This document shows positions 9,778-63,502 of a DNA stretch of 64,000 nt, piece by piece. The translations under genes were made by a program, and so were the position numbers. The notes under the pieces were generated by a model. It made no database searches. It was not told the DNA's origin and worked only from the letters and a program-made list of their open reading frames with translations. Every line of letters begins with the position of its first letter. Positions within the stretch are counted from its first letter, which is position 1. This DNA comes from Sulfurimonas sp. (GTDB lineage: Bacteria; Campylobacterota; Campylobacteria; Campylobacterales; Sulfurimonadaceae): contig JAVETX010000002.1 in assembly GCA_034005845.1 (NCBI GenBank), positions 2,342 to 66,341 of the forward strand, in the 5' to 3' direction.

Positions 9778-11027
9778 TGATGGGAAAAAGAAAGAATCTA
9801 GCACTTAGTATGCTCTTGGGATGTGGCGCTTTATTTGCAAATGATGAGGTCGAGGTTTTACGCAAGCAGGTGCAAGAACTCAGTCAAAAAATAGACTCTA
9901 TTGAGAAGCAGCAAAAGGTGCAAAAAGGGGTCTTAGAGCTTGTCTCAACCGATACGGTTTTGAGTATTGGTGGGCGTATTCAGCTCAACGGTGCTTACTC
10001 TTCTCCTGATGCGTCTTATTTTGCAAGTAAGATCCCTGCTAATAGCGAGCAAAAGAGTGATAAGTTTTCTATGAATGCGCGCGATAGTAGATTGTGGGTC
10101 AAGACACGTACACCCTCTGAATATGGGATGATCCGCACCACCTTAGAGATCGATTTTTTTGGCTCTGCTGCGACGAATGTAAGTGTGAATGATCATAACC
10201 CAAGATTGCGTCATGCCTATGTACAGGTGGGTGATTTTGGTTTTGGGCAAACCAACTCTGCGTTTAATTCCGTTGTCGCGATTGAGACAGCAAACTACGC
10301 GATGGATGATACTTTCGTGCGCCAGCCTGTGGTGCGTTATACACATAATAGTGGTGATTGGGCTTGGGATGTATCGTTTGAAGAGCCAAATGCGATGTTT
10401 TTTAAAGATGGCTCTAGCTCTTTAGTAAAAGGGGGAAGTGATACACTCCCAGATCTTGTACTGCGCGGGCGTTATTTTGATACTTGGGGCGAGGTGGGGC
10501 TTGCGTATCTCTCTCGTTATATCCGCTATAAAGAAGATGATAATACTTTGCCAACTTTTGGAACGAGTGATGCCAAATATGGCTATGGACTCAATCTCTC
10601 AGGACGTATCAAAACCTTCGGTCTTGATGGTATCCGTTTTAATGCGCACTATGGAGAGGGGAGTGGACGCTATATCGCTTACAATGGCTTTGGAGCGGGA
10701 ACTATTACATCCCAAGGTGCTATAGAGCTCACAGAGATCTATGGGGGGCATATTGGGTATCGCCATTGGTGGAGTACAAAACTTCGCTCTACTTTGGCAT
10801 TTTCTTATATAGGTGCGAATACATCCGATGAAGCATTAGGTTATGGTGGTGATCCTAAGAAAACTAACATCACAAAAGAGAGTTATGCAACACAACTCAA
10901 TCTTTTTTACAATCCTCTCAAAAATCTTTTGGCTGGTGTAGAGCTGAGTGATGCAACGAGAAAGTTCAAAGATGGGCGTCGAGGAGACGCGCAGGCTGTC
11001 AACTTGATCGTGCGTTTTGACTTTTAG
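9777..11027 (+). CDS. DcaP-like outer-membrane porin
   Basis: Signal peptide, N-terminal coiled coil (VLRKQVQELSQKI), ARDSRLWVKT, PRLRHAY, RQPVVRY, C-terminal aromatic RFDF. ATG overlaps the upstream TAA. Confidence 0.78.
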   Translation: MMGKRKNLALSMLLGCGALFANDEVEVLRKQVQELSQKIDSIEKQQKVQKGVLELVSTDTVLSIGGRIQLNGAYSSPDASYFASKIPANSEQKSDKFSMNARDSRLWVKTRTPSEYGMIRTTLEIDFFGSAATNVSVNDHNPRLRHAYVQVGDFGFGQTNSAFNSVVAIETANYAMDDTFVRQPVVRYTHNSGDWAWDVSFEEPNAMFFKDGSSSLVKGGSDTLPDLVLRGRYFDTWGEVGLAYLSRYIRYKEDDNTLPTFGTSDAKYGYGLNLSGRIKTFGLDGIRFNAHYGEGSGRYIAYNGFGAGTITSQGAIELTEIYGGHIGYRHWWSTKLRSTLAFSYIGANTSDEALGYGGDPKKTNITKESYATQLNLFYNPLKNLLAGVELSDATRKFKDGRRGDAQAVNLIVRFDF

Positions 11028-11917
11028 TAGATATCTTCCACCGCGTTCATCTCTGAGTCATCATAGGGATCCATGTGAATGAGGGTATGAACATACTTCT
11101 CTTCAAAAGCATCACGAAACTTTGCTTCGAGCCTATCCGAGACGAGATGGGCATCATAGAGTGAGATGCTCACATTAAAGACGGTATGCACAGAGATAAA
11201 GATGTGCGAGCCCGATTCTCTTGTTTTGAGATCATGATAGCCTGTGATATCCTTTTCATCTTCTAAAATCGCCTCGATGGTAGCTACATCCTCAGCGGAA
11301 AGTGCGGCATCGAGCAACATCAAAAGCCCCTCTTTGATAATTGGTACTGCTGAATAGATCATATAAAAGGCTATACCGATCCCAAGTATTGGGTCGATGA
11401 GGTGTTCTCCTGTATAGGCGATGAGCCCGAGTGCTAGTAAGATAGCTCCGTTAGAGTAGAGGTCTGTTTTGTAGTGAAGCGCGTCTGCTTTGATCACCAT
11501 ATTTTTTGTTTTTTTAGCGACGTAGTTTAAAAACGCAACTAAAAAAGCGGTGATAACAAAAGAGGCGATCATCACCAAAACACTTGTACCCACATACTCC
11601 ATAGGCTTGTAGTGGATGATCTTTGCGATCGCTTCATAGAGGATAAAGAGCGCTGAAAAAGAGATCACGACACCCTCTATCACAGCAGCAAGTGGCTCTA
11701 TTTTGCTTCGTCCGTAGTGAAATTTATCATCAGGGTCTTTTTCTGCACTGTTGAGCGCGAAGTAGTTAAAGAGTGAGACTGTGAGATCTAAAAGCGAATC
11801 GATCGCTGAGGCTAAAACCGCGATAGAGCCACTAAAAAGCCCAACTGTCATTTTCATAAGTACAAGTACAGCGGCTACACTCGTTGAGACAACGGTAGCT
11901 TTCTTTTCTAATCGCAT
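11024..11917 (-). CDS. Cation diffusion facilitator (FieF-like)
   Basis: ASAIDSLLD, FHYGRSKIE, ADALHYKTD, C-terminal HLVSD and IHMDP. Confidence 0.92.
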   Translation of the reverse strand: MRLEKKATVVSTSVAAVLVLMKMTVGLFSGSIAVLASAIDSLLDLTVSLFNYFALNSAEKDPDDKFHYGRSKIEPLAAVIEGVVISFSALFILYEAIAKIIHYKPMEYVGTSVLVMIASFVITAFLVAFLNYVAKKTKNMVIKADALHYKTDLYSNGAILLALGLIAYTGEHLIDPILGIGIAFYMIYSAVPIIKEGLLMLLDAALSAEDVATIEAILEDEKDITGYHDLKTRESGSHIFISVHTVFNVSISLYDAHLVSDRLEAKFRDAFEEKYVHTLIHMDPYDDSEMNAVEDIY

Positions 11918-11980
11918 CAAATTTCCTATAGATAACTTTAGGTACAATTATAATTAAAATTTTTTAAGATAAAGTATAAA

Positions 11981-12874
11981 ATGAATATTGACGCATTAAG
12001 ACAAGAGAGACAAAAATGGATGGGGTGGAAAAACATTGCCCCACTACGCCAAGCTTTAGAGAGCCTGCAAGAGGGATCTTGGGATGTAGAGCTAGGAGAT
12101 GTTGTAAAGATCAGTGGTAATTATGCTACACCTTCGGATGTAGAGGGTGTGGCAAGACTGATGATGCCATGGCGCAAAGGACCTTTTGAACTTTTTGATA
12201 CTTACATAGATACCGAGTGGAAGAGTGATATTAAGTACAATCTTTTGCGCAAGCATTTTGATTTACAAGATAAGAAAGTTGCCGATATAGGGTGTAACAA
12301 CGGGTACTATCTTTTTCGAATGCAAGAGGATAAACCAAAGTTGCTTGTGGGTTTTGACCCTTCACCTCTTTATAAGACACAGTTTGATTTTATCAACCAT
12401 TTTGTCAAAAGCGATATTGTGTATGAGCTTTTGGGTGTGGAGCATCTTGAGTTCTATGAGCAGAAATTTGATACTATCTTTTGTTTGGGCGTGCTCTATC
12501 ACCGAAGCGATCCTGTAGCGATGCTCAAATCTTTGTATCGTGGACTCGAAAAGGGTGGGGAGCTGATCCTTGATACTTTTTATATTGATGGAGAAGATGA
12601 GATGGCTTTGTGCCCTGAATCATCTTACTCGAAGATACCAAATATCTATTTTGTCCCGACGATCAAAGCGCTTGAAAACTGGTGCAAACGTGCAGGATTT
12701 AGTGACTTTGAGGTTTTAGAAACCTCTGTGACAACATCTGAGGAACAACGCAAAACAGACTGGATAGAGGGGCAATCGCTTGAAGATTTTTTAGATCCTG
12801 AGGATCCGAGCAAGACGGTTGAGGGGTATCCAGCACCCAAAAGAGTTTATGTGAAAATGAAAAAGGAAAAATAA
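11981..12874 (+). CDS. cmoB: tRNA U34 carboxymethyltransferase CmoB
   Basis: [48 protein letters not shown]. Confidence 0.95.
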
Positions 12875-13380
12875 TGGCTAAAAATAAAACGGCTAGCACT
12901 AAAAACGATAGAGAGATGGATGAAGAGCTCGAAGGGGATGATTTTGTAGAAGAACATAATAATCAGGTTGTTCTTAATACCCATGAAACGATCAACCGTG
13001 ATCTGTGTGGTGAGATCATGAAGCTTGAACGCGGCTATGTAGAGCTTCGCCTCACGACCACTTCTGAGATGATCGTGGATAATATGGGTCTGATCCACGG
13101 AGGTTTCGTCTTTGGTGCAGCTGACTTTGCAGCGATGGCGTGTGTCAATGAAAAAAATGTGGTGCTTGTGGGGAGTGACTGTCAGTTCCTCTCCCCTGTA
13201 AAGTTTGGTGATGAGGTGAACTTTGTAGGGCGTGTACGCCACAAAGAGGGAAGAAAAAGAAATGTGCACGTAGAGGGTTTTGTGCTTGATATCAAAGTGT
13301 TTGAGGGGGAGTTTAAAACAGTGGTTTTAGAGCGCCATGTCTTAAAGCTCAAGCTCTTAGATGAACATGAAGAGAAGTAG
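12874..13380 (+). CDS. Hotdog-fold (PaaI-like) thioesterase
   Basis: GLIHGGFVFGAADFAAM, QFLSPVKFGD. Confidence 0.85.
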   Translation: MAKNKTASTKNDREMDEELEGDDFVEEHNNQVVLNTHETINRDLCGEIMKLERGYVELRLTTTSEMIVDNMGLIHGGFVFGAADFAAMACVNEKNVVLVGSDCQFLSPVKFGDEVNFVGRVRHKEGRKRNVHVEGFVLDIKVFEGEFKTVVLERHVLKLKLLDEHEEK

Positions 13381-14202
13381 GCTCAGCGCCATTACTAACA
13401 TCCCAAGCGTGATCCCTGCGAGAGTGGTGTGTGCATTGCCATAGACTCTTGCAGCGGGTAAGAGCTCATCAAAAGAGATATAGATCATAATCCCCGCGAC
13501 CACTCCAAAAGTGATCCCCAAAGTAAAATCCCCCATAAATGGAAGCAGTACAAAAAAGCCCAAGATCGCACCGATGGGTTCTGCAAGCCCTGAGAGTGTT
13601 GCGTACCAAAAAGCTTTTTTCTTCTCTCCTGTCGCGTGGTAGATCGGCAAAGAGACCGCCATCCCCTCTGGGATATTATGCAGCGCGATCGCAAGGGCGA
13701 TACTCACCCCCAAGGTCACATCATCGAGTGCAGAGACAAAGGTTGCAAAACCCTCTGGAAAGTTGTGGATACCAATGGCGAGTGCGGTAAAGATGCCTGT
13801 TCTTCTGAGTGCTGAAGTGCTTATCACACTGTTTTGATTTTCGGGTTTGAGCTCTAAAAGATCATTGTTACTTTTTGGTTCGTGGGGGTTGACATCCTCA
13901 GGAACAAAATAATCGATCACAGCACTCAGAGCCATCCCTGCAAAAAAAGCAAGAATAGTGTAAAGCTCAGCACTCATCTCACTCTTAGAGAGATCTAAAA
14001 ATGCCTGAGTCGATTTTGGGAGGATCTCCATAAAAGAGACATAGATCATCACCCCCGCTGAAAAGCCTAGCCCTATAGAGAGAAATATGTGGTTTTTTGC
14101 ATGAGAAAAAAAGGCGAGCAGGGCACCCACAGATGTTGCAAGCCCTGCAAAGAGTGTGAGTGCAAATGCAAGAAGATAGGTCTCAAGGGCTAGGTCTTGC
14201 AT
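13357..14202 (-). CDS. zupT: ZIP-family zinc transporter ZupT
   Basis: GFSAGVMIYVSF, AIGIHNFPEG, IALHNIPEGMAVS, SGLAEPIGA, ISFDELLP. Confidence 0.93.
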   Translation of the reverse strand: MQDLALETYLLAFALTLFAGLATSVGALLAFFSHAKNHIFLSIGLGFSAGVMIYVSFMEILPKSTQAFLDLSKSEMSAELYTILAFFAGMALSAVIDYFVPEDVNPHEPKSNNDLLELKPENQNSVISTSALRRTGIFTALAIGIHNFPEGFATFVSALDDVTLGVSIALAIALHNIPEGMAVSLPIYHATGEKKKAFWYATLSGLAEPIGAILGFFVLLPFMGDFTLGITFGVVAGIMIYISFDELLPAARVYGNAHTTLAGITLGMLVMALSLLLFMFI

Positions 14203-14209
14203 CTACATC

Positions 14210-14956
14210 CTAAGCTTTGCTTTGAGGAAACATCTTGCTGATATCTCCTGAAAATGGAAAAACGATCGTGTTCGTTTTGTCATTAGAAATATCACTGAGT
14301 GTTTGTAAGTAGCGCAGTTGCAAGGCTTGCGGATTTTGTGCCAAGACATTTGCCGCTTCGAGAAGGTTTTGACTCGCTTCAAACTCCCCTTTGGCATTGA
14401 TCACTTTTGCACGTCTTTGACGCTCCGCCTCCGCTTGTTTTGCGATAGCGCGGATCATACTTTCATCAAGATCGATATGCTTGATCTCTACGTTTGAGAT
14501 CTTGATCCCCCACGCATCGGTTTGTTTATCAAGGATCTGTTGGATATCGTAGTTGAGCTTTTCACGCTCTGCGAGCATCTCATCGAGCTCGTGCCCACCG
14601 AGAACTGATCTGAGTGTGGTTTGGGCAAGTTGGGATGTAGCCGCATCAAAGTCTTCTACTTGGATGATCGCTTTTTCTGGATCGATCACTCTGTAGTACA
14701 CAACGGCATTGACATGAACAGAGACATTATCATGTGAGATTACATCCTGAGAAGGGACATCCAGCACGATCGTACGCAGATCAAGCCGCGCCATCTTTTG
14801 GATAAGTGGGATGATGATAATAAGCCCCGGACCTTTGACACCCGTAAAACGACCGAGGGTAAAGACAACCCCTCTTTGGTATTCGTTGAGAATGCGGATC
14901 GAAGCGGCGATAAGAAAGACAACGAAAAAGAGAAGGTAGATTGCAGTTTCGTACAT
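14210..14956 (-). CDS. SPFH/band-7 stomatin-like protein (slipin)
   Basis: [56 protein letters not shown]. Confidence 0.95.
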
Positions 14957-14959
14957 GAT

Positions 14960-15319
14960 TTACTCCTTTGGTTTGAGATGTAAAAGCAGACCAGCAAGTG
15001 CATCTACTTTAACGATCTGATTGATCTCTAAGGGCGTATCACTCACACCCTCCCAGGTTTCTGAATGGCAAGTGACAAGATAGCCATCCTCAGTTTTGGC
15101 GATCACCTTTGCATCGAGCCCTATCATCTCTTCCATACCTGTATCTGTAACTATCGAGCGTGACTTGATAATAAAATAGATACTATAGATGATAAAAGCA
15201 AAAGAGATAAGGGTAGAAGCGATAAGAATGGGAAAAAGGTGCTTGCACTCTGTGAGGATAAATGTCTTTTCAGAGGCGACGAGTGAGAAAGGAAAAAGTA
15301 GAGCGAATAACCTTTGCAT
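14960..15319 (-). CDS. Short NfeD-family protein (signal peptide + TM + OB fold), possibly internally deleted
   Basis: C-terminal TGMEEMIG...GYLVTCHSETW...INQIVKV OB-fold pattern; directly upstream of the slipin gene. Confidence 0.7.
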   Translation of the reverse strand: MQRLFALLFPFSLVASEKTFILTECKHLFPILIASTLISFAFIIYSIYFIIKSRSIVTDTGMEEMIGLDAKVIAKTEDGYLVTCHSETWEGVSDTPLEINQIVKVDALAGLLLHLKPKE

Positions 15320-15397
15320 AAGAAACTCCTTCGCACACTTAGGTAGCTATCATAGTAGCGAAGTTTCAAGAGAAAAGTCAAGAAACTTCAGTATCGT

Positions 15398-15997
15398 TTA
15401 TTTGCTCGCAGTCAGTAAGAAAACTCCAAAATCGCGGTGAGGTTTTTTGATGATATTGATACACTCACAGCGGATGTTTTGAAAGCCTGCTTCTTCTACG
15501 ATCTTGCAAAGAGACTCTGCTTCAAAACCGTAGTGGTGTACCCCTGTGTTGTCAGAGTGAAAGCTTCCATCTTCACTCTCAAGGTCAGCTATCGCGATAA
15601 AACCATCTTTTTTGATGTTTTTGTAAATAGTGGCAAAAAACTTCTCAAGGTGCTCTATATGGTGCAGAGTCATAGAACTGATAAGCCCATCATATTCTCC
15701 CTCAAGCGGTTGTGCGATGATGTTTTGTTGGAGAGGTTCTATAAAAAGCTCGGGAGTATTTTTCTCGCTGAGTTTCTCAAGCATACTCTCGGATGTATCG
15801 ACCCCGTACACCTTTTTGGCATGTTTGGCGATCTCAAAACCCAAAAGCCCCGTACCCACACCAAAGTCAATGATCTCCATCTCTTTGTTGATAGGAAACT
15901 GCTCTAAAATAGCCTCAGAGATCGTACGTGTATTTTGCTGACGAATTGAGCCTTTATCCCAATCTTTTGCCTTGTCTTGAAAATGATCTTGTTGCAT
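15398..15997 (-). CDS. Class I SAM-dependent methyltransferase
   Basis: IIDFGVGTGLL, GVDTSESML, SMTLHHI, IADLESEDGSFH. Confidence 0.9.
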   Translation of the reverse strand: MQQDHFQDKAKDWDKGSIRQQNTRTISEAILEQFPINKEMEIIDFGVGTGLLGFEIAKHAKKVYGVDTSESMLEKLSEKNTPELFIEPLQQNIIAQPLEGEYDGLISSMTLHHIEHLEKFFATIYKNIKKDGFIAIADLESEDGSFHSDNTGVHHYGFEAESLCKIVEEAGFQNIRCECINIIKKPHRDFGVFLLTASK

Positions 15998-16080
15998 CTT
16001 TACTCCGATAAATAGTGATAATTTTTTTGCATTATAGCTTGAGTTTATTAATGGTGTTTGGTGTGTTTATGTAAGAAGTG

Positions 16081-16110
16081 TACTCTCTCACGCGGGAGTA
16101 TGGGAGTGAG
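16081..16110. repeat. Possible degenerate REP-like hairpin
   Basis: GC-rich island in an AT-rich spacer; TACTCTC/GGGAGTA stem. The minus strand CTCCCATACTCCCGCGTGAGAG resembles CCCACGCT-CGCGTGGGA-type extragenic palindromes. Single copy in the window. Confidence 0.3.
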
Positions 16111-16172
16111 AAAAATATACATTTACAAACATTTTACAGCTTTGTAGTTTTGAGTCAATTTATCCTATTGTC

Positions 16173-16520
16173 TTACAACCCAAGATGTTTTGTTAATTTC
16201 GAATTCACTTCTAAAATTTCTTCTTGAGTTAGTGAGGTGAGAAGCTTGTCTAGCTGTATTCTACTGATATCTAAAGTGCACAATTCATTGACACATATTT
16301 CACAGGTTTTTTCTAGATTATCTCTTGATCGAATTTGTACTCTTAAGTCTCCGCCATAAAGATTGGTAGAGATAGGAATCACACTAACACCTTTAAATTC
16401 TACTTTGTCAATATTTCTATTTGCGACATCATTTTGAATGATTAATGCGGGTCTCACTTTTCCAAATTCGCTGTTATATTTTTTTCCAAAATTTACGAGG
16501 TATATCTCACCTCTTTTCAT
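16173..16520 (-). CDS. PemK/MazF-family toxin
   Basis: MKRGEIYLVNF...SEFGKVRPALIIQND, VIPIST, ELCTLDISRI; ATG overlaps the antitoxin stop (ATGA). Confidence 0.9.
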   Translation of the reverse strand: MKRGEIYLVNFGKKYNSEFGKVRPALIIQNDVANRNIDKVEFKGVSVIPISTNLYGGDLRVQIRSRDNLEKTCEICVNELCTLDISRIQLDKLLTSLTQEEILEVNSKLTKHLGL

Positions 16521-16768
16521 TTTTGAGACTCTTCAACCACAGCTTCGATCTCTAAAAACTCTTCGTGAGCTTGTTTTGACAAAGCTTGTTTGTTGTTCAT
16601 CAGATAAAGCTCGTCTTCTATCTTTTCTTTCACTTTTTCATATAATTCATAGGGGAGAACCACACTTCTGGTAATATGTTTTTTCGCATCTTCTATAAAT
16701 GTAATATCAGTAGGTCTTGTAACATAAGATGGCTTTTTGATGACATCACTTGAGTTTATCGTTAACAT
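16517..16768 (-). CDS. Putative antitoxin, Phd/YefM-like
   Basis: 83 aa, upstream of and coupled to the toxin, AGGAG RBS. MLTINSSD...ITFIED...SVVLPYELYEK resembles the Phd/YefM pattern; acidic C-terminus. Confidence 0.7.
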   Translation of the reverse strand: MLTINSSDVIKKPSYVTRPTDITFIEDAKKHITRSVVLPYELYEKVKEKIEDELYLMNNKQALSKQAHEEFLEIEAVVEESQK

Positions 16769-16791
16769 TGTAGTGCTCCTATTTTATTATT

Positions 16792-16827
16792 TGTACATAT
16801 TGTACTATTATATTATACTACTGTCAA
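16792..16827 (-). promoter_or_regulatory. Sigma70 promoter and operator of the TA operon
   Basis: Minus strand TTGACA (16827-16822)-N17-TACAAT (16804-16799), overlapped by AGTACA-ATA-TGTACA (16806-16792). Confidence 0.7.
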
Positions 16828-16840
16828 AACTCACAATACT

Positions 16841-17434
16841 TTAGAGCTGCTGTATCCAATAATCTGAATATTGTTGCTCTTGCTTGATAGTTGTAGTTCC
16901 ACCATGCCCTGGATAGATCGTCTTGTCATAAGGGATCGTCTTGAATTTTTGCAGACTTTTTTTCATATCCTCAGGGCTTGAGTAAGGAAAGTCAGTGCGC
17001 CCGATAGAGCGCTCAAAGATAAAATCTCCGCTAAACATCGCTTCACCGATCTCTATAGTAGAACATCCCGGGCAGTGTCCTGGGAAATGGCGAAATTTTA
17101 CTTTGACACCATCAAAATCAAGCTCCTCATCACCATCTACTTCATAATCAGGTGTAGATGGAGGAAGATCGGGCATCCAGTTACTTCCACTCAGTAACAT
17201 CACATCCCCTTTGGGAGTATAGAGCTCAACATTGAGTGCTTTTTGTAGTTCTGCATTGCTCCACACATGGTCAAAATGTCCGTGTGTGTTGAGGATCGCC
17301 ACAGGGTTTGTAACATTGTCTAAAACCCATGAGGTCGCATCTACTCCAGGATCTATAATAAAATCCTTTCCATCGACACTCACGATGTAACAATTTGTCT
17401 GGTATGCGCCCATAGGTTGAACTTTTATCTGCAT
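16841..17434 (-). CDS. MBL-fold metallo-hydrolase (glyoxalase II-like)
   Basis: YQTNCYIV, IIDPG, THGHFDH, PGHCPG, FSGDFIF, IYPGHG. Confidence 0.92.
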   Translation of the reverse strand: MQIKVQPMGAYQTNCYIVSVDGKDFIIDPGVDATSWVLDNVTNPVAILNTHGHFDHVWSNAELQKALNVELYTPKGDVMLLSGSNWMPDLPPSTPDYEVDGDEELDFDGVKVKFRHFPGHCPGCSTIEIGEAMFSGDFIFERSIGRTDFPYSSPEDMKKSLQKFKTIPYDKTIYPGHGGTTTIKQEQQYSDYWIQQL

Positions 17435-17485
17435 ATTTCACTCTTTTTTAGCCGGATTATAGCATCTTTGTTTTATCATTGCTTT

Positions 17486-18304: not shown

Positions 18305-18374
18305 AAAAATCCTATTTTTACGAAACTTTGTTATAATATTTATTGTTAAAGTTTCTTAAAGGTTTGAACACAAG

Positions 18375-19181: not shown

Positions 19182-19190
19182 GGAAAAAAG

Positions 19191-20312: not shown

Positions 20313-20318
20313 ACACCA

Positions 20319-22077: not shown

Positions 22078-22088
22078 AGAAAAGTGAT

Positions 22089-53060: not shown

Positions 53061-53249
53061 TCACTCCAAAATTGGTAATAATTTTAAGATAGAATTATAA
53101 CATCTATTTTATATTAGTATAATTAAAGCATATAATATAGCGTTAAATATTAATTTTTCTCTAAAATCTTTTATAAGAAATTTCTATAATACCTCTTTAA
53201 GAATATGTGATTAAAATTCCCTCACAATATTATTTAAAAAGAAGCGTTC

Positions 53250-53693: not shown

Positions 53694-53751
53694 ATCTAAT
53701 TAATATTAATTCGATATAATTCCCAATAATTCTAAACTATTAGGAATTCTA

Positions 53752-55281: not shown

Positions 55282-55335
55282 AGTATACTTTTGCTAAAAT
55301 ACGACAAAAGAGAATAAAAAGGGTTTGTCATAGAT

Positions 55336-55656
55336 ATGCAAATGGTGGTAGATTCCCTTCGCAAGAGGGGGAAGATTTATAAAAAGATGCAAGAGATCCC
55401 TCCTAAAGACTTAGGGATTCGCAATAAGATAAAGATCTATAAAGCAACGGATGTACACGGATATTTTTGGGCGATCTTTGCGGTGAGCCAAAAGAGCAGA
55501 CTTCTTATGAAAGATGTGCATAAATTTGAAGAGATCTATGGCAAACTCACACTTTTTTTCGATCATAACTTTAAAAATAAGGTGATCTTTATCGATGCTC
55601 CCCTTTGTTCTAAAGCCAAAGATGCTTTTGTAAAAGCGGGATGGAAGATACTCTAA
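55336..55656 (+). CDS. Hypothetical protein coupled to coaX
   Basis: 106-aa ORF whose TAA overlaps the coaX ATG. Confidence 0.75.
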   Translation: MQMVVDSLRKRGKIYKKMQEIPPKDLGIRNKIKIYKATDVHGYFWAIFAVSQKSRLLMKDVHKFEEIYGKLTLFFDHNFKNKVIFIDAPLCSKAKDAFVKAGWKIL

Positions 55657-56273
55657 TGCTCTTGTGTGATATTGGCAACACCTCTTTTCATTTTTATGAT
55701 GGGCAAGATTATTACAAAAAGAGTGTCAAAGAGTTTGATCCTCAAACACTTCCAGAGGAGGTGTTTTATATCTGCGTCAATCCTCAGATCAAAACTCTTC
55801 TCAAACCACTCTCAAACTGGAGAGATCTCTCAGCGTTTATCGACTATACAAACTACTATCCAAGCATGGGGATCGATAGGATCATCGCGTGTGAATCGAT
55901 AGAAGATGGAATTATCATTGATGCGGGGAGTGCGATCACTGTAGATATCGTCAAAGAGGGCGTTTTTGGTGGTGGCTATATCTATCCAGGGACACAGGCG
56001 ATGCAAAAATGCTATCAAAATATCTCAAGTGCGCTGGAGTACTCATTTAATTACGAGCTAGATTTGGATATAATGCCAAAAAATTCCCAAGATGCTATCA
56101 CGTATGGATTTCTCAAACCCCTGCAAAGTGAAGTGAGATCGCATCAAATGGATCTCTATCTTACAGGTGGAGATGCAAAGAAGATAGCAAAAATATTTCC
56201 AGATGCACATATCGATGAAGCATTACTATTTCATGGGATGAAAAAGATAATACAAAGGGCAAATCTATGCTGA
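55656..56273 (+). CDS. coaX: Type III pantothenate kinase
   Basis: LLCDIGNT, MGIDR, IIDAGSAITVD, LTGGD. Start moved from 55641 to 55656. Confidence 0.93.
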   Translation: MLLCDIGNTSFHFYDGQDYYKKSVKEFDPQTLPEEVFYICVNPQIKTLLKPLSNWRDLSAFIDYTNYYPSMGIDRIIACESIEDGIIIDAGSAITVDIVKEGVFGGGYIYPGTQAMQKCYQNISSALEYSFNYELDLDIMPKNSQDAITYGFLKPLQSEVRSHQMDLYLTGGDAKKIAKIFPDAHIDEALLFHGMKKIIQRANLC

Positions 56274-56893
56274 CAGTAGCACTTCCAAAAGGGCGTATTG
56301 CGCAAGAGACACTAGAGATTTTTGAGACAATTTTTGGAGATAGTTTCAAGTTTGATGATAGAAAATTGATCTTAGAGACTCCAAAATTTCGTTTTTTACT
56401 TGTGAGAAACCAAGATGTAGCGACCTATGTGTACCATCAAGCTGCAGATATCGGAGTGGTAGGTCTTGATACGCTTGAAGAGCAAGGTTTGGATGTTATC
56501 CGCTTGCTTGATCTTCGTCGTGGAGTGTGTAAAGTAGCTATTGGGATGCGCAAGGGTGAAAAGCTCGATCTCAACAAACCTGAGCTCAAAGTTGCTTCTA
56601 AGATGGTCAATATCACCAAGCGCTATTTTGAAGAGCGTGCTGTATCTGTAGATATTATCAAGCTTTATGGCTCTATTGAACTCGCACCACTTATTGGGCT
56701 TGCTGACATGATCGTAGATATTGTAGAAACTGGTACGACGATGAAGCAAAACGGCTTAGAGGTGGTTGAGGATATTATGGAGTCTTCTACCTATCTTATC
56801 GCTAATAAAAACTCTTATATCTCTAAAAAAGATGAGGTACTTGATATCTATGAGAGAATCAATGCTGTGATCAAAGCGGAGCAAAACAGATAA
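56267..56893 (+). CDS. hisG: ATP phosphoribosyltransferase (short form)
   Basis: VALPKGRI, DIGVVGLD, VASK, KLYGSIELAP, IVDIVETGTTMKQNGL; 208 aa. Confidence 0.97.
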   Translation: MLTVALPKGRIAQETLEIFETIFGDSFKFDDRKLILETPKFRFLLVRNQDVATYVYHQAADIGVVGLDTLEEQGLDVIRLLDLRRGVCKVAIGMRKGEKLDLNKPELKVASKMVNITKRYFEERAVSVDIIKLYGSIELAPLIGLADMIVDIVETGTTMKQNGLEVVEDIMESSTYLIANKNSYISKKDEVLDIYERINAVIKAEQNR

Positions 56894-57615
56894 TGACAAA
56901 CCTTGATCTTTACGCAAAAGCGGAGCATCTCTTAGGAATAGAAGAAGCGACAGAAGCACTCTATGATCTTTACCGCTCAGAACTCGATGACTATAAGGTC
57001 AAAACCCTTTTAGATGTTGGGTGTGGACGCGGTGGATTTATGCGCCGTATGATCAGCGATGGTGTGGCGTGCAAAGGGATCGATAAAAGTGCTGTGATGG
57101 TTGCAGAGTGCAAAGCCCTTGGTCTGGATGCTTCGGATGTAGAGATAAGCGAGGTTGAGGGAAAATTCGATGCGATCGTGAGTATCTTTGATGTGCTTAA
57201 CTTTATGCCCAAAGAGGAGCTTTTAAACTTTTTAGAAGCGGTCTCTTCTAAACTTGAAGAGGATGGTGTCTTTATAGCCGATATCAACACACGTTATGGT
57301 TTTAGCGATGTGGCTGAGGGAACGATGAGCAACGACACCGATAAAGAGTTCTTGAGTGTCGATGCTGTTTTTGAAAATGATCAACTGCATACAAAATTTA
57401 CCCTTTTTGAAAAAGAGGAAGATGGCAGATACACCAAATATCAAGATACGATCGTGCAGTATTTTCATAAGATGGTACTTTTTCAAAAGATACCCTCACT
57501 CAAGCTTGTAGACAAACAAACTTTTTCCTTGTATGATACAGAAGATAAAACACTTCTTATCTTTAAGAAAAAAGGTGCGACTCATGGAAAATCTGACAAA
57601 GTGTCCTCTGTGTGA
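56893..57615 (+). CDS. Class I SAM-dependent methyltransferase
   Basis: LLDVGCGRG, GIDKS, FDVLNF, FIADINT. Confidence 0.88.
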   Translation: MTNLDLYAKAEHLLGIEEATEALYDLYRSELDDYKVKTLLDVGCGRGGFMRRMISDGVACKGIDKSAVMVAECKALGLDASDVEISEVEGKFDAIVSIFDVLNFMPKEELLNFLEAVSSKLEEDGVFIADINTRYGFSDVAEGTMSNDTDKEFLSVDAVFENDQLHTKFTLFEKEEDGRYTKYQDTIVQYFHKMVLFQKIPSLKLVDKQTFSLYDTEDKTLLIFKKKGATHGKSDKVSSV

Positions 57616-58213
57616 AAGTGAAGCGGAGTTTTTTTACCAACATAAATATCTTCGTTGCCCAGAGTGCGACTCTCTCTTTAAACATCCCAAGCTTCTCCCA
57701 AGTCTAGAGGAGGAGAAAAAGCGCTACACACTTCACAACAATGACGTACAAGACCCCAAATACCAACATTTTGTCTCCCCTCTCACCGATGCTATCTTTG
57801 ATGATTTTACCCCTACGAGTCTTGGCTTAGACTTTGGATGTGGGAATGGACCCGTGATCTCTAAAGTACTGAGCGATCAAGGTTTTGAGATACTTCAATA
57901 TGACCCACTTTTTTGTAATAACAAAGAGGTGTTAGAGAAAAAATATGATTATATTGTTTGTTGTGAAGTGATCGAGCATTTTCACAAGCCAAACAAAGAG
58001 TTCGCACTTTTGCGCTCCCTTTTAAAAGAGGGTGGTAAGCTTTATTGCAAAACACACCCCTTTGATGAGAGTATCGATTTTGAGACATGGTATTATAAAG
58101 AAGATGAGACCCATGTCTTTTTTTACCAAGCAAAAACGCTTCAATGGATCAAAGAGAAGTTTGGCTTTGTAGATGTGATGCTTGATGGTCGCATCATCAC
58201 CTTTATAGCTTAG
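57584..58213 (+). CDS. Class I SAM methyltransferase with N-terminal zinc ribbon
   Basis: CPLC...CPEC, GLDFGCGNGP, CEVIEHF, WYYKEDETHVFFY. Confidence 0.88.
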   Translation: MENLTKCPLCESEAEFFYQHKYLRCPECDSLFKHPKLLPSLEEEKKRYTLHNNDVQDPKYQHFVSPLTDAIFDDFTPTSLGLDFGCGNGPVISKVLSDQGFEILQYDPLFCNNKEVLEKKYDYIVCCEVIEHFHKPNKEFALLRSLLKEGGKLYCKTHPFDESIDFETWYYKEDETHVFFYQAKTLQWIKEKFGFVDVMLDGRIITFIA

Positions 58214-59334
58214 ATTTGCTCTGCATAGAGTGTGATCTCAGTGATCTCACTACTCGCGCCTAAGCGCATTGGTGGTCCCCAAAATCCTGTCCCTTTATTG
58301 ACATAGATCTGCATATCTTTTGTGTGTTGATACAGACCACTTATATAGGGCTGTTGGAGTTTGACGAGTGCACGAAATGGGTAAAGTTGCCCTCCATGTG
58401 TATGTCCACTGAGCATAAGATCGATGGAGTGTGGTACCTCATGGATGTAGCGTGGTTGGTGTGCTAGAAGGATCGTAGGAGATGCTTTGATCCCCTCAAT
58501 CGCTTTGTGGATATCTGGGATGTAGCTTTGGGTGCGATAGCCTATCACATCATACACACCGACAAGATTAAATCCACTTTCTAGCTCTCCAATATAGATA
58601 TTTTCATTTTCTAAAACGCGAATATCAAGCTTGTTGAGTGTATCAATAATTGCAGCGACGCCGTGAAAATACTCATGGTTGCCCACGACAAAAAAAGTGC
58701 CGTAGGTGGAGCGAAGTTTTTGCAGTTCGCTGAGTGCTTCGTGTGCGTATTTGAGCTCTATATCAACAAGATCTCCTGTGATAACGACAAGATCAGGCTC
58801 TCTTTGATTTACGCGCTCTACAATCTCGCGGATAAAAGCAGCATCGATGAGCCCACCAATATGGATATCACTAAGCTGGATGATCTTGTACTCTTTTTTG
58901 AGACCTTTGAGTTTGATACCAACTCTCTCGAGCTCCACATGGCGTGCATTATAAAGGGCTGTACCACTCAGGGCTGTGGCTGCAACGAGTGAAGAGAGAT
59001 CAAGCGATCTTTTAAAAAAGCGGCGACGATTAGGCGAGAGTGGGGTGAATCTAAGCATTAGGCGCGAGAGATCATAGATGAGGGTCGTACAAAAGAGTAA
59101 GAACAAAATACCAATAGGCACAGAGAGCAAAAAATACAGAGTATTATCCAAGCTAGGATAGTAGCGCGCGAGCATATACCCTATGATTCCAAGATAATTG
59201 ATCACTAAGAACCAACGAAAGGCTTTTTTGTATGATTCATTAATATCAAGATGGGCGATGAGCCTGCGGGATATGTACATATTGAGAAGGTAAAAGACGC
59301 CTAAAAAGGCTGCTGCAAAGAGTGTTATTTTCAT
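58210..59334 (-). CDS. Membrane-anchored metallophosphoesterase (YkuE-like)
   Basis: Three TMs; LSDIH, TGDLVD, GNHE, LLAHQP, SGHTHGGQ, GPPMRLG. Confidence 0.92.
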   Translation of the reverse strand: MKITLFAAAFLGVFYLLNMYISRRLIAHLDINESYKKAFRWFLVINYLGIIGYMLARYYPSLDNTLYFLLSVPIGILFLLFCTTLIYDLSRLMLRFTPLSPNRRRFFKRSLDLSSLVAATALSGTALYNARHVELERVGIKLKGLKKEYKIIQLSDIHIGGLIDAAFIREIVERVNQREPDLVVITGDLVDIELKYAHEALSELQKLRSTYGTFFVVGNHEYFHGVAAIIDTLNKLDIRVLENENIYIGELESGFNLVGVYDVIGYRTQSYIPDIHKAIEGIKASPTILLAHQPRYIHEVPHSIDLMLSGHTHGGQLYPFRALVKLQQPYISGLYQHTKDMQIYVNKGTGFWGPPMRLGASSEITEITLYAEQI

Positions 59335-59350
59335 GGCGCTATTGTAACAT

Positions 59351-61360
59351 CTATTTTACAACATCCAGAGTGATGTTTGGTTGCCCAAAATAATACCCTT
59401 GCACAAAATCGATACCGATCTCTTTGACCTTTTCATAGATCTCATCAGAGCTGACAAACTCAGCGACCACCATGATATTTTTACGTTTGGCAAAAGAGAC
59501 GATGGTGCGGACAATATCTTCAGAATCGATATTGGTGTCGATATTTTTGATAAGGGAGTCATCGATTTTAATGATGTCTGCTTCTAGGCGCAAAAGATAT
59601 TCAAAGTTTGAATAGCCTGTTCCAAAATCATCGATCGATATCTTGGCACCTAGTTTTTTTGCTTGGAGTAAAAACTCATTGACAATAGGAATATTGTGTA
59701 GCTCTTCAGACTCGACGATCTCAAAAATAGTGCGTGCTGCGATAGTGTGATCTTGGAGCATCTCATAGCAGTAATTGCGCACTTGATCCGATTCGATATC
59801 TTGGGATGTAAGGTTGATCGAGAAACTATACTCAGAGTTTTTGATCTGCTCAAAGACTTTTTGGATCATAGCCAAAGAGAGATCGATATAGAGGTTAGAG
59901 CGTTTTGCAATATCTAAAAAGAAAAAAGGTGAAGCATAATTCTCTTTGTCTTGGAGTCGCATTAGGGCTTCGTATTTTACAAGCTCTTGGGTTTGTGTAT
60001 CAAATATTGGTTGGTAAAAAGGGATAACACCTTTGTTTTTGATAGCATCTTGAATCTTGATCGTCCAGTCGATATTGTCTTGGTATTGTTTGGTATTTGC
60101 TTCAGAGTACTCATAGATACGAAACTTGTCTCGATGTGCTTTTGCTTGGTGCATCGCCATAGAACATGAGGTGATAAGGTCCTCTTTTTTCTCTTGAGAG
60201 AGAGCTACTGTGATATTGATGGGGATCTCTTTGTCATCTACGAGCACTTTATTTGCGTTGACAAAAGCTTGTACCTCTTGCATAAAGATGATAAAGTTTT
60301 TAAAAGGGACACTGTAGTTAAGGATCGCAAACTCATCGACGTGGATATGATAGAGCTCAAACTGAGTGTTATTCAAGAGGATACGCATAGTGCTTGAGAG
60401 CTTTTTAATCACTTCATCCCCTCTTGCATAGCCATAGAGATTGTTGAGATTATTAAAGCGATTGATATTGATAAGAGCTATAGAGCCACTCTCTATCTCT
60501 TGGAGCTTTTTATTGAGTGCAGAGATATTTTTTGTACCCGTAATATTTGAGGTGTAAGAGAGTTCATGGAGTCTGTTTTGTTGCTGTATATAGTCAGTCA
60601 TATCATAACGAATCGCAAGATACTCTCGAATATCGCCTAAACTATCTAAGATAGGAACAATGGTGAGATTGACATAGTATGTATACTTATGTTTTGAGAG
60701 GTTTGCTAAGAGACCTTTTCACACTTTTTTTGCCTGTATCGTCTCCCAAAGATCTTTAAAAGTAGATGCAGGAGTGATAGGATTGCGTAGGATACTATGA
60801 GGTTTTCCGATCAGTTCCTCGCGTGAATATCCAGAGATATCAATAAGGTTTTGGTTCACATGGGTGATATTGCCGTGGATGTCGGACTTAGAGATGATAT
60901 AGCTCTCATCAAGAGCTTTTTGGTATTGTGCAATGTCGTTGGAGCGAATCTCTAGCTCTAAAATATTTTTCTCTAGCTCTTTTTCGTAGCTGATTAGGTT
61001 GGTAATATCGGTGATATGCCCATAAAAATAGAGGATCTCTCCTTTGTCATCTCTTTGAATTCTGGTCGTATCTTCTACCCAAAGAGTTTGCCCTGTAGCT
61101 GTGATGACACGATAAGGCTCATGCTCAAAACTCTCTAGTTTGTTCTCGATCGCATGTTGTACCTCTTTGATTACACGAGAGAGATCCTCTGGATGTATGA
61201 TCTTTGCATAGGCGATCTCTTGTGAGAGAAATTGTTCGTGGGTATAGCCAAAGAGTTTTATTGTATTGGTGCTAGCATAACTTACACTCCACGAAGCATC
61301 GTTGCGCCACTTAAAAAAGACAGACGGGGAGTGGTTTAAATAGTGTTCAAAATTATCCAT
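59351..61360 (-). pseudogene. PAS-PAS-GGDEF(degenerate)-EAL phosphodiesterase interrupted by one in-frame TGA at 60721-60719
   Basis: The two track ORFs (61360-60719 and 60601-59351) are in one frame. The 117 nt between them translate without stops and complete the PAS/PAC domain (KKV*KGLLANLSK...NLTIVPILDSLGDIREYLAIRYD). EALMR and DDFGTGYS are intact; GGDEF is replaced by HVDEF. Confidence 0.85.
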
Positions 61361-61463
61361 AAAAGTTTACATCTGATTTTAAATTATATTATTGAGTAAC
61401 ATATGACTGTATAGTATCTGAATAATGTTAAAGGGAAATTTAGAAAGGCTAAGAGAGAGTCAA

Positions 61464-61482
61464 ATGACCCAAAAAGGGTCAT
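61464..61482 (-). terminator. Terminator of the cytochrome c peroxidase gene
   Basis: Minus strand ATGACCC-TTTTT-GGGTCAT followed by TTG, 5 nt after the stop codon. Confidence 0.6.
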
Positions 61483-61487
61483 CTGTT

Positions 61488-62501
61488 TTAGTTCATATTT
61501 GGTTTTGGTGTCGTATCTGTTGATGCAGGAAGCATTGGCAAAGTGATCTGTGGCATTTTTCCATCAAGAGATTTTAAGAAAGCCTCGATAGAGTTTGTTT
61601 GTTTCTCAGAGAGATCCACACCAAGTTGGATACGTCCCATCTCAACGATCGCTTCTTTAAGACTCCAGATCTGACCATTGTGGTAATAAGGTGCAGTTTT
61701 TGTGATATTTCTAAGTGTTGGTACTTTTACCATACCATTTGCATCCCCTTTAAAATCACCTATGTTCATATGTTTATACTCAGCTACAACATTGAGCATA
61801 TTCATCGTTCCACCAAGTGCTACACCATTGTGACATGATGCACATCCCACGTCGATAAATGTTTTAAGACCCTCTTGCTCTGCTTTTGTAAGTGCTTTTT
61901 TATCACCATTTAAAAAGTCATCGTAGCGTGATGGCGTTACAAGTGTACGCTCATAAAGACCGATCGTATCTGTAACTTTTTCAAATGTGATCTTTACATC
62001 TTTGCCGTACGCTTTTTTAAACTCAGCAACATATTCTGGCATAGAAGTGACCGTGTTTACAACATGATCTTTTGTCGCAGCCATCTCTGGATGTGCTTGG
62101 ATCGGACCTTGTGCTTGTTTTTCTAAGTTAGGATCTCTACCATCCCAAAACTGTGCTGAGAAAAACACTGCATTATAAACAGTTGGTGAGTTTAAGTGGT
62201 GTGGATTTGCAGCCCATTTGTGACCGATCGCAGCACTTACACCATCATCTCCACCCTCGCTAAGGTTGTGACATGTGTTACAGCTAATAAGCCCACTTTT
62301 AGAAAGTCTAGGATCAAAATAAAGCTTTTTCCCAAGTTCAGCTTTTGCATCTGTGATAGGGTTTTTTGGGTTGTCAATAAGTTTCATAAGTTCAGATTTT
62401 GAAGTTGGAATTGCCTCAAGAGAGTTTTGTTTTGCTGTATCAACAAGGCTAGATGCCATCAGTGAAGAACCTACTAAAAGGAGAGAAAGTGTTGTTTTCA
62501 T
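61488..62501 (-). CDS. Diheme cytochrome c peroxidase (CcpA/MauG family)
   Basis: Signal peptide; LYFDPRLS, SCNTCH, QFWDGR, GCASCHNG, KVPTLRNI, APYYHNG. Confidence 0.93.
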   Translation of the reverse strand: MKTTLSLLLVGSSLMASSLVDTAKQNSLEAIPTSKSELMKLIDNPKNPITDAKAELGKKLYFDPRLSKSGLISCNTCHNLSEGGDDGVSAAIGHKWAANPHHLNSPTVYNAVFFSAQFWDGRDPNLEKQAQGPIQAHPEMAATKDHVVNTVTSMPEYVAEFKKAYGKDVKITFEKVTDTIGLYERTLVTPSRYDDFLNGDKKALTKAEQEGLKTFIDVGCASCHNGVALGGTMNMLNVVAEYKHMNIGDFKGDANGMVKVPTLRNITKTAPYYHNGQIWSLKEAIVEMGRIQLGVDLSEKQTNSIEAFLKSLDGKMPQITLPMLPASTDTTPKPNMN

Positions 62502-62517
62502 TATTGTTCCTTATTTT

Positions 62518-62535
62518 AATTATCAAACGATAATT
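62518..62535. promoter_or_regulatory. Candidate operator upstream of the peroxidase gene
   Basis: Perfect 7-4-7 inverted repeat AATTATC-AAAC-GATAATT, 16 nt upstream of the start codon; AT-rich, so chance is possible. Confidence 0.45.
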
Positions 62536-62581
62536 TTTTTCTTTTAGAAATTTTAACGCTTCAAAGCTTAAACTAAGTTGA

Positions 62582-63502
62582 TTAGTTTTTGTTGAGAATA
62601 TCTTTTGCACTCTTGATAGCATTAAGATAGCTCAGCGTATTTGCCCTGCCTTGGTAGGCAATATCAAAGGCGGTGCCGTGATCTACAGATGTACGGATGA
62701 TGGGGAGGTTGAGTGAGATATTGACACTCTCATCAAAGTAGAGGGCTTTGAGGGGTGCTAAACCTTGGTCGTGATACATCGCAACAAAGTAGCGAAAGTT
62801 TTTGCGAAAGTTTGGAGTAAATGCGATATCGGGAACGATAGAGCCAATGAAGCATTTTTTGCCGATGATCTCATTTGCCTCATCGATCGCTTCATCGATA
62901 ATGCTCTCCTCATTTCCAAGCACCCCATTATCACCCGCATGAGGGTTGAGACCCAAAACGGCAACCTCTTTGTCTCCAATGCTTTGATGTAGATCGAGTA
63001 AAAATGTAAGCAATTTTTCTTTTGTGATACTATCGGCGACTTGACGTAGGGGTATATGTTCGGTGTACAGAGCCACAAACATCTTCTCACATCCAAGCAT
63101 CATGATCGCCTCTTTGTCAAAGTGTTTGCGCAAGAGATCGGTATGCCCCTTAAACTCCAAACCAGCCATCATCCACGCTTCTTTGTGGATAGGAAGGGTA
63201 ACGATCGCATCGACTTTTTTCTCCTCTGCAAGTTTGATCGCTTCCATAAAAGAATCATACGAATAGCGCCCACTCTCCACACTCAAAATTCCAGGAGTGA
63301 TAAGAAATGAACCCTCTACATCCCAAGTACATAGATCATTAGGGATACTACATCCCAAGAGCTTTGCAGCTTGATCGAGCATCTCTTTATTAATACAATA
63401 AAGAGGCTCTACCATTTGTGCTATCTCATGGTGTGCGCGAAGTGCGATCTCGATCCCCACGCCACTAAGATCACCGATACTTATGGCAACTTTTGGTTTC
63501 AT
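62582..63502 (-). CDS. pdxA: 4-hydroxythreonine-4-phosphate dehydrogenase
   Basis: IGDLSGVGIEI, GHTD, TEHIPL, LNPHAG, MYHDQGL, RTSVDHGTAFDIA. Confidence 0.96.
   Translation of the reverse strand: MKPKVAISIGDLSGVGIEIALRAHHEIAQMVEPLYCINKEMLDQAAKLLGCSIPNDLCTWDVEGSFLITPGILSVESGRYSYDSFMEAIKLAEEKKVDAIVTLPIHKEAWMMAGLEFKGHTDLLRKHFDKEAIMMLGCEKMFVALYTEHIPLRQVADSITKEKLLTFLLDLHQSIGDKEVAVLGLNPHAGDNGVLGNEESIIDEAIDEANEIIGKKCFIGSIVPDIAFTPNFRKNFRYFVAMYHDQGLAPLKALYFDESVNISLNLPIIRTSVDHGTAFDIAYQGRANTLSYLNAIKSAKDILNKN

Follow-up and report, generated by a model that had tools for sequence, protein, structure and literature searches.

A dispersed 10-base word with lineage-specific dialects in Sulfurimonas, a candidate DNA uptake signal

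Results

The stretch analysed here, which we call the window, comprises 64,000 nucleotides of the Sulfurimonas sp. assembly GCA_034005845.1 (contig JAVETX010000002.1, positions 2,342 to 66,341 of the forward strand), and its 69 called genes make up 96.5% of the sequence. Scattered through these genes is a short asymmetric word, ACATCCCAAG, which ranks first by frequency among the 10-mers of the window. It is present in 21 exact copies, 13 on the plus strand and 8 on the minus strand, that span 9815-63359 (Table 1), and the genes hosting them are ordinary housekeeping and transport genes. An earlier note on this DNA had counted 20 copies, with 12 on the plus strand, having missed one plus-strand copy.

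In 100 dinucleotide-preserving shuffles of the window the word was expected 0.08 times and was found at most once, which bears out the roughly 200-fold over-representation that the earlier note had claimed, and the copies it listed lie where it had placed them. The enrichment also survives codon-aware nulls built on the called genes. Synonymous-codon shuffles, done gene by gene so that every protein and the codon usage of each gene were kept, gave a mean of 2.6 copies and a maximum of 7, and codon-order shuffles gave a mean of 1.15 and a maximum of 3 (n = 300 in each case).

The base 5' of the word is T in 13 of the 21 copies, a count that the earlier note had already reported with a denominator of 20, and it is never G; the base 3' of the word is A or G in 15 of 21. 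Past about 2 bases the flanks of the copies are unrelated to each other, and the word is therefore not part of a longer repeat element. Although the 10-mer had been put forward as the signal, it is only the sharpest part of a longer and degenerate one, with the consensus yTACATCCCAAGa and a core, YTACATCC, that occurs about once per kb, against about once per 3 kb for the full 10-mer. Compared with the codon-aware nulls, the window holds 118 copies of ACATCC (49 +/- 5.5 expected), 69 of TACATCC (16 +/- 3 expected) and 20 of TACATCCG (2 expected). Forty-seven other Sulfurimonas loci (975 kb in all) served as an empirical control: the density of TACATCC there is 0.11 per kb, versus 1.08 per kb in the window, and TACATCC is enriched with each of the four possible bases after it.

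One-mismatch variants of ACATCCCAAG are also enriched, about 5-fold. There are 17 of them rather than the approximately 5 previously noted, but the observation that exact copies outnumber them holds. Together, exact and one-off copies amount to 38, versus 3.4 expected, and the variable position is the third C in 9 of the 17 variants (ACATCC[N]AAG). The five copies of the one-base-shorter ACATCCAAG described before are indeed present in the window. The copies are not clustered or confined to one region, with a dispersion index of 0.78 in 4-kb bins, and genes with several copies were not significantly in excess (P = 0.10). Scans of the window with Rfam and for tRNAs were empty.

The first 9.8 kb of the window are without a full copy of ACATCCCAAG. 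Its first 3 kb encode an ankyrin-repeat protein (2319-2915) as well as a protein (148-1524) whose Tle1-like phospholipase domain is of the kind found in type VI secretion effectors.

As the earlier note had stated, nearly all copies (20 of 21) lie in coding sequence and all six frames are used. Ten are read in sense, as TSQ (seven copies), HPK (two) or YIPR (one), and ten in antisense, as LGM (four), WDV (three) or LGC (three). For nine word sites, the orthologous position was examined in as many as 80 other Sulfurimonas genomes. At conserved peptides (LGMY in ubiD, VLGC in pheS, and LGML), relatives use other synonymous codons and the word is spelled in this lineage only; at variable peptides, the word goes together with residues particular to the lineage (YIPK to YIPR, xHEK to QHPK, TTEE or TADE to TSQE, TSLG to TSQG). 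Synonymous spelling at conserved peptides, together with lineage-specific residues at variable ones, therefore reflects a constraint on the DNA that is paid for in protein sequence. The same pattern of codons and residues has been described for the uptake sequences of Haemophilus and Neisseria (PMC2817400).

Table 1. Copies of ACATCCCAAG and related features of the window, with the state of the orthologous site in relatives where it was compared
Feature	Position	Strand	Location and reading	Site in relatives
Copy 1	9815..9824	-	Antisense in DcaP-like porin gene (9747-11027, +); LLGC	
Copy 2	10363..10372	-	Antisense in DcaP-like porin gene (9747-11027, +); AWDV	
Copy 3	10707..10716	+	Sense in DcaP-like porin gene (9747-11027, +); TSQG	
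Copy 4	12078..12087	-	Antisense in Methyltransf_9 (cmoB-like) gene (11981-12874); SWDV	
Copy 5	13398..13407	+	Antisense in ZIP transporter gene (13357-14202, -); LGML	
Copy 6	17528..17537	+	Sense in DUF455 gene (17417-18304); TSQE	
Copy 7	17693..17702	+	Sense in DUF455 gene (17417-18304); TSQE	
Copy 8	22650..22659	+	Sense in polyprenyl synthetase gene (22519-23406); QHPK	Mostly xHEK; 90%-identical relative has one-off ACATCCCAAA
Copy 9	24487..24496	+	Sense in hemA (23403-24650); YIPR	YIPK in 30 of 56
Copy 10	29057..29066	-	Antisense in ubiD-family gene (28499-30355); LGMY	LGMY conserved; word spelled by synonymous codons
Copy 11	31501..31510	+	Sense in argH (31348-32727); TSQE	Mostly TTEE or TADE; 90% relative has one-off ACATCCCAGG
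Copy 12	33353..33362	-	Sense in 519-aa nitroreductase-family gene (33189-34748, -); TSQG	TSLG or TAFG
Copy 13	33464..33473	+	Antisense in nitroreductase-family gene (33189-34748, -); LGML	LGML conserved; word spelled by synonymous codons
Copy 14	34547..34556	-	Sense in nitroreductase-family gene (33189-34748, -); TSQV	Highly variable position
Copy 15	37285..37294	-	Antisense in pheS (36464-37456); VLGC	VLGC invariant in 60 of 60; word made by synonymous codons
Copy 16	47527..47536	+	Sole intergenic copy, within hairpin 47522..47546	
Copy 17	51395..51404	+	Antisense in HlyD/CusB-like membrane-fusion gene (50865-51653, -); LGMY	
Copy 18	57682..57691	+	Sense in methyltransferase gene (57533-58213); KHPK	
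Copy 19	59800..59809	-	Sense in EAL part of PAS-GGDEF-EAL gene (59351-60601, -); TSQD	
Copy 20	63318..63327	+	Antisense in pdxA (62582-63502, -); TWDV	
Copy 21	63350..63359	+	Antisense in pdxA (62582-63502, -); LLGC	
Hairpin	47522..47546	.	Perfect 11-bp inverted repeat ATTCTACATCC-CAA-GGATGTAGAAT; pairs the full word with a core-only partner	
Dispersed core (Y)TACATCC	1..64000		TACATCC 31 on +, 38 on -; the 69 TACATCC are included in the 118 ACATCC	

The gene that hosts copy 19 has an in-frame stop (59354-61360, minus strand), leaving open reading frames (ORFs) of 213 and 416 aa, and is a single 669-aa ORF in the closely related contig L081 (L numbers are those of the sampled loci). A pseudogene, a difference between strains and a sequencing error are all conceivable. 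Amid housekeeping genes, a MazF/PemK-type toxin gene (16176-16768, minus strand) has a small ORF upstream, likely as a toxin-antitoxin pair.

ACATCCCAAG is found genome-wide and is common to three genomes that diverge by 10-18% where they can be aligned. Among the genomes of the species collection, the closest is AUK043, a metagenome-assembled genome (MAG) whose argH protein is 98% identical and whose aligned DNA is 90.5% identical to the window. It carries 6 copies in 15 kb of the same region (L001) and 6 copies in 20.4 kb of the unlinked gspG region (L252), three on each strand, along with 20 TACATCC (0.98 per kb). Window and AUK043 have 5 sites in common, 2 sites are found in the window only and 1 in AUK043 only, and the partners of the unshared sites are all one base off. 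An ENA contig from a 98%-identical strain (L081), found by exact-protein look-up of two window genes, retains 5 of 5 overlapping sites and adds 3 more in the 5.9 kb past the window end; the same look-up with the first and last window genes gave no match. A 2.5-Mb JGI contig (Ga0645781_00002, L439), which was aligned to AUK043 only and is 82-87% identical to it over a shared gene cluster, has 4 copies in 21 kb and 16 TACATCC. The density seen in the window is thus also found in unlinked regions of two other genomes. In total, 35 copies lie in 123 kb of non-overlapping sequence, or 0.28 per kb, and extrapolation from these 123 kb gives about 700 copies per 2.5-Mb genome. The 47 longest other argH-region loci hold at most one copy each, and a scan of the genome collection with the 15-mer CTTACATCCCAAGAG returned, among the matches listed, only chance ones in unrelated bacteria. 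A 9.2-kb surface-protein insertion in L252 has no copy, for which the probability is about 0.05 at the measured density (hand arithmetic); the window itself contains little accessory DNA.

Mapping across Sulfurimonas showed that the word is lineage-specific and that sister lineages have related words. Many other lineages carry an over-represented word of their own, and about half of the loci show none. We refer to these words as dialects, ACATCCCAAG being dialect A. In a sister lineage (dialect C; L003, L250 and two metagenome contigs) the signal is yTACATGCCAAGa, and its word TACATGCCAAGA is one base away from ACATCCCAAG. Several lineages have TTCCACATGCCAaga, which shares the ACATGCC core and a weaker AAGA tail, and TTCCACATGCCA is found at about 0.5 per kb in L007, L042, L230, L256, L262, L218, L206 and others, often as perfect inverted pairs at gene ends. 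Two further words are unrelated to that of the window: GCTGCGTTTA, as (G)CTGCGTTTA(A), reaches 1 per kb, and CTCACGCA(A/G) reaches 25 copies per 21 kb, both of them mostly in genes and in both orientations (L009, L029, L020, L244, L249, L233, L396, L412 and L419, as well as L423, L405 and L071). Sites of a palindrome, TACATGTA, number 4-9 per 20 kb, where about 0.4 would be expected, both in many lineages of Sulfurimonas and in a Sulfurospirillum MAG (for example L051, L074, L066, L368, L428, L429 and L243); the palindrome has TACATG in common with the C dialect.

Each of eleven genomes in which two unlinked regions were sampled (dialects A to D) had its own word in both, at 6-23 copies per 20 kb, one more locus being left out of this comparison for its short length, and dialects were not mixed: ACATCCCAAG is absent from the C-dialect loci L003 and L250, and ACATGCCAAG is absent among the one-off variants of the window. 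At one orthologous position in ubiD the window has TACATCCCAAGG and a C-dialect genome has TACATGCCAAGG, which differ at the third base of a glycine codon; the remaining mapped C-dialect sites are not shared with the window. In a tree of four proteins the dialects form coherent shallow clades. Copies of dialects B, C, D and F are also mostly genic, in several frames and in both orientations, and the intergenic share is 25-32% for dialects B and F, where about 5% of the DNA is non-coding.

Outside the Sulfurimonas loci, the palindrome GGAGCTCC was counted 28-30 times per 16-20 kb in Thermovibrio/Desulfurobacteriaceae MAGs (L267-L269), versus 3.7-5.8 expected, with both strands counted, which as sites corresponds to about 14-15 versus 2-3 expected.

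The only intergenic copy in the window belongs to a hairpin that nearly fills the 27-base gap between a Cache-GGDEF gene (ending at 47522) and a convergent RND pump gene (ending at 47550). The 61-nt stretch that includes it folds at -18.1 kcal/mol (z = -3.0), and no T-run follows the stem. Of the reuse in terminators that the earlier note had counted as part of the profile, the window offers this one hairpin only, in which the partner of the full word has just the core. Perfect inverted pairs at gene ends are many in dialect B and C genomes and number one in the window. Dialect-B genomes often have cTTGGCATGTGGAA-loop-TTCCACATGCCAAg pairs, several of which lie at the same gene end downstream of argH, where a C-dialect genome has a C-dialect inverted pair.

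The AcrB-type RND pump next to this hairpin is encoded by two ORFs (47553-49262 and 49265-50854, minus strand), an N-terminal half of 530 aa and a C-terminal half of 570 aa linked by an overlapping TAATG stop/start, in place of a single gene of about 1000 aa.

GC skew is positive across almost the whole window, and ACATCCCAAG lies on the G-rich strand in 13 of its 21 copies there and in 20 of 35 over all dialect-A sequence. The latter count is not different from 0.5 (P = 0.50), and the probability of 20 or fewer given 0.75 is 0.016. The core TACATCC is split 31/38 in the window. When strands were assigned by local skew (3 kb either side), the fraction on the G-rich strand was 0.50 (dialect A), 0.49 (B), 0.56 (C), 0.43 (D) and 0.44 (F), and across the dialects it ranges from 0.40 to 0.56, although orthologous sites of related genomes are not independent in these counts. 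Polarity of the Chi or KOPS (FtsK-orienting polar sequence) type, which the earlier note had set against an uptake signal, is thus absent as judged by GC skew (20/35).

Annotation of the window genes revealed no competence genes apart from RadA. A search with a regular expression for prepilin leaders led to a type II secretion-like gene cluster that is conserved across nearly all of the Sulfurimonas sampled, with the gene order gspG, a 174-aa prepilin, gspF, four small proteins, a PDZ (GspC-like) protein, gspD, gspE and two prepilins. In dialect A it was located through protein search, cluster members and contig look-ups; in the genome-collection scan with GspE and the metagenome scan with a GspF alignment, the dialect-A cluster was not among the matches listed. 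AUK043 has the whole cluster, with a gspG that matches TIGR01710 at 138 bits, and the 2.5-Mb dialect-A genome (L439) has the part from gspF to gspE together with two prepilins. For the competence genes that the earlier note had suggested looking for, the candidate is thus this type II secretion-like set with prepilins, present in two dialect-A genomes other than the window's own. The minor prepilin is fast-diverging, with 33-48% identity versus 75-81% for GspG, and a sequence search of the three minor prepilins against solved structures matched the N-terminal pilin helix only, or nothing.

In AUK043 about 9 kb are inserted between the first prepilin gene and gspF (L252 10949-20414; L436 1-9901), whereas the cluster is contiguous in other Sulfurimonas. 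The insertion encodes a PKD-like lipoprotein and a 2519-aa protein with LVIVD/cadherin-like repeats, and the 2.5-Mb genome has a 2798-aa cadherin-like gene directly upstream of gspF.

Discussion

Our results suggest that ACATCCCAAG is probably an uptake signal of the type of the DNA uptake sequences (DUS) of Neisseriaceae and the uptake signal sequences (USS) of Pasteurellaceae, with dialects, maintained by a drive of uptake plus recombination and new for Campylobacterota. An uptake function is favoured by the combination of a long asymmetric word, an enrichment of 8-fold to more than 200-fold, a cost to proteins that is independent of frame, a genome-wide spread, balanced orientation, inverted pairs and dialects one base apart. 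To our knowledge no other class of sequence has all these properties.

A DNA-binding component of the uptake machinery would prefer double-stranded DNA that carries the word, and fragments of the same lineage would be taken up and recombined more often than others. Such a bias would convert near-matches to matches wherever the protein tolerates it, as a molecular drive. The likeliest machinery would be the type II secretion-like pseudopilus, with a minor prepilin or a periplasmic DNA-binding protein as the receptor. As the specificity of the receptor drifts, the genomic word would follow, giving rise to the dialects of sister lineages. Transformation in Campylobacter jejuni requires a type II secretion-like (Cts) system.

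The profile of the word had been likened by the earlier note to that of DUS and USS, and most of the computational tests are in favour of this likeness; the uptake function itself we infer, together with competence, the uptake gain from the word and the identity of its reader. The DUS of Neisseriaceae, GCCGTCTGAA and its dialects, is read by the minor pilin ComP and, like the word described here, is a non-palindromic word of 10-12 bases that occurs at about 0.3-1 per kb, in both orientations and in several frames of genes, with more exact than one-off copies. Inverted pairs at gene ends, which may form hairpins, are seen here as with DUS, and both words have dialects that are one or a few bases apart. 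Dialects of DUS have been described (PMC3630211), as have their length, copy number and association with terminators (10.1101/2025.10.24.684340). The Sulfurimonas word differs from DUS in its unrelated sequence, in the phylum that carries it and in having fewer intergenic copies in dialect A (1/21). Moreover, DUS work through a type IV pilus, whereas the candidate machinery here is a type II secretion-like pseudopilus, and changes of dialect between close relatives are sometimes drastic (ACAT-type versus CTGCGT-type).

Similarity to the USS of Pasteurellaceae, with its core AAGTGCGGT and weaker flanks, lies in a strong core with a weaker flank (YTACATCC plus CAAGa), in a mostly genic location and in a ratio of exact to one-off copies near 1-2:1. 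The exact/one-off ratio is similar in Haemophilus. As with USS, copies are found where proteins tolerate them and bring amino-acid changes along (PMC2817400). The sequence is again unrelated to that of USS and the phylum a different one. Within the same phylum, C. jejuni prefers DNA of its own kind and depends on type II secretion-like (Cts) machinery for transformation, but RAATTY is a short and common palindrome that is not enriched, whereas the word is long, non-palindromic and strongly enriched. C. jejuni selects DNA by RAATTY methylation through CtsM. The cyanobacterial HIP1 (GCGATCGC) resembles our word as a hugely over-represented short genic word, with a debated function, but is a palindrome, whereas ACATCCCAAG is asymmetric. 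HIP1 has been linked to a methyltransferase.

Other explanations must be weighed against an uptake signal. The word could be a Chi-like site, read on one strand by AddAB (or RecBCD) and causing a switch from degradation to RecA loading, in the service of protection of the cell's own DNA and of repair. Chi and KOPS are likewise short, dispersed, species-specific, over-represented and mostly genic words, no Chi sequence is known to us for Campylobacterota, and the location of 13 of 21 window copies on the G-rich, presumably leading, strand would fit. However, Chi is typically co-oriented with replication, with 70-90% on one strand per replichore, and the word has no consistent polarity, neither as a whole (20/35 on the G-rich strand, with P = 0.016 for 20 or fewer at 0.75) nor as the core TACATCC (31/38) nor across dialects (0.40-0.56), which argues against Chi or KOPS. 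Known Chi sequences have 5-8 bases and are over-represented a few-fold, largely through favoured codons, whereas the word has 10-12 bases, is enriched from 8-fold (codon-aware) to more than 200-fold and forces amino-acid changes. Perfect inverted pairs at gene ends have no role under a Chi model, and the word differs sharply among congeneric species. The absence of polarity, the word length and the strength of the enrichment speak against both Chi and KOPS, and we find a Chi-like role highly improbable. A KOPS or another architecture-imparting sequence was rejected, since none of these same counts reaches a strand skew above 80%. Sites of the parS, matS, Noc or SlmA type were rejected as well, the word being asymmetric, present at about 0.3 per kb and spread with a dispersion index of 0.78.

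It is also conceivable, although unlikely, that the word belongs to another self-marking system, such as the target of an orphan or type IIS/III-like methyltransferase or the site of a nucleoid or defence protein, under a selection unrelated to uptake. The core holds GGATG/CATCC, a FokI-type recognition sequence, CATG is present in other dialects, one of which is the palindrome TACATGTA, and abrupt changes of word between close relatives resemble changes of specificity in restriction-modification systems; the absence of co-variation between the pseudopilus cluster and dialect would fit as well. Nevertheless, avoidance or neutrality is the norm for restriction or modification sites, rather than a 10- to 200-fold enrichment, and chromosome-organising sites (parS, matS, Noc- and SlmA-binding) are few, palindromic and regionally clustered, whereas the word is evenly spread and non-palindromic. 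We know of no mechanism but an uptake or recombination drive that builds hundreds of copies at the expense of proteins. A hybrid is possible, in which uptake depends on methylation of the word, as with RAATTY in C. jejuni.

We consider it quite unlikely that the word is a functionless by-product of biased mutation or repair, for example a very-short-patch-like repair tied to a methyltransferase. The enrichment extends to one-off variants, constraint is weakest at a C within a run of C, and oligonucleotide frequencies in E. coli are known to be skewed by very-short-patch repair, but effects of repair are about 2-fold at one position, whereas here all ten positions are constrained and the word is over-represented by 8-fold to more than 200-fold. 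Non-synonymous changes are also involved, at several of its positions, and the inverted pairs at gene ends would be left unexplained. We give virtually no weight to the idea that codon or dipeptide usage, a repeated protein or a mobile element has produced the word as an artefact, and we exclude a codon artefact. Seven of the 20 coding copies are read as TSQ, more than in any other way, but the copies occupy six frames and the shuffles yielded no more than 7 (synonymous) and 3 (codon-order) copies; the flanks are unrelated, Rfam and tRNA scans gave no match, and in 47 other Sulfurimonas loci these same proteins are almost always without the word. A repeat of the repetitive extragenic palindromic or miniature inverted-repeat transposable element type was rejected on account of unrelated flanks and of 20 genic copies among 21, and an RNA motif on account of the empty Rfam and tRNA scans.

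Several observations weigh against an uptake signal. Almost all Sulfurimonas sampled have the pseudopilus cluster, among them the approximately half without a detectable word, so that the presence of the cluster has no predictive value for the signal; it could be a plain secretion system. Screening of 12 cluster proteins for divergence that tracks dialect beyond phylogeny found none, with residuals of at most 0.02. Dialect B occurs in three clades and dialect D in two, interleaved with lineages that have no word, so that repeated loss or horizontal transfer of specificity would be needed. Intergenic copies are not enriched in the window (1/21, versus 3.5% non-coding DNA). The balanced orientation (20/35) was judged by local GC skew on about 123 kb, nearly all of positive skew. 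Finally, a literature search found no paper on competence in Sulfurimonas.

In the same search, no paper except one general review connected uptake sequences with Sulfurimonas, Campylobacterota or Epsilonproteobacteria, in agreement with the earlier note, which knew of no such motif described in Campylobacterota. According to a 2025 preprint (10.1101/2025.10.24.684340), such signals are described in Neisseriaceae and Pasteurellaceae only, both of them host-associated families of Proteobacteria. On the sequences compared here, we see an even chance that the Sulfurimonadaceae carry a third, independently evolved family of uptake signals with at least five dialects, some separated by a single base (ACATCCCAAG/ACATGCCAAG) and some unrelated (GCTGCGTTTA, CTCACGCA). 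This would mean widespread sequence-selective transformation with a receptor other than ComP, perhaps a prepilin of the type II secretion-like pseudopilus, whose specificity would have changed repeatedly between close relatives.

Sulfurimonadaceae are widespread sulfur-oxidising Campylobacterota of vents, sediments, groundwater and oxygen-depleted waters. The words are practical markers for the assignment of contigs to lineages and for spotting foreign DNA. If they are uptake signals, they would show repeated evolution of such signals, in this case in another phylum and among chemolithoautotrophs that are free-living, and Sulfurimonas would offer a natural series of dialects for the study of receptor-genome co-evolution, in which the words of one pair are a single base apart and unrelated words seem to have replaced each other. 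A handle on finding the receptor would also be gained, and adding the right word to donor DNA might make uncultured or intractable Sulfurimonas transformable.

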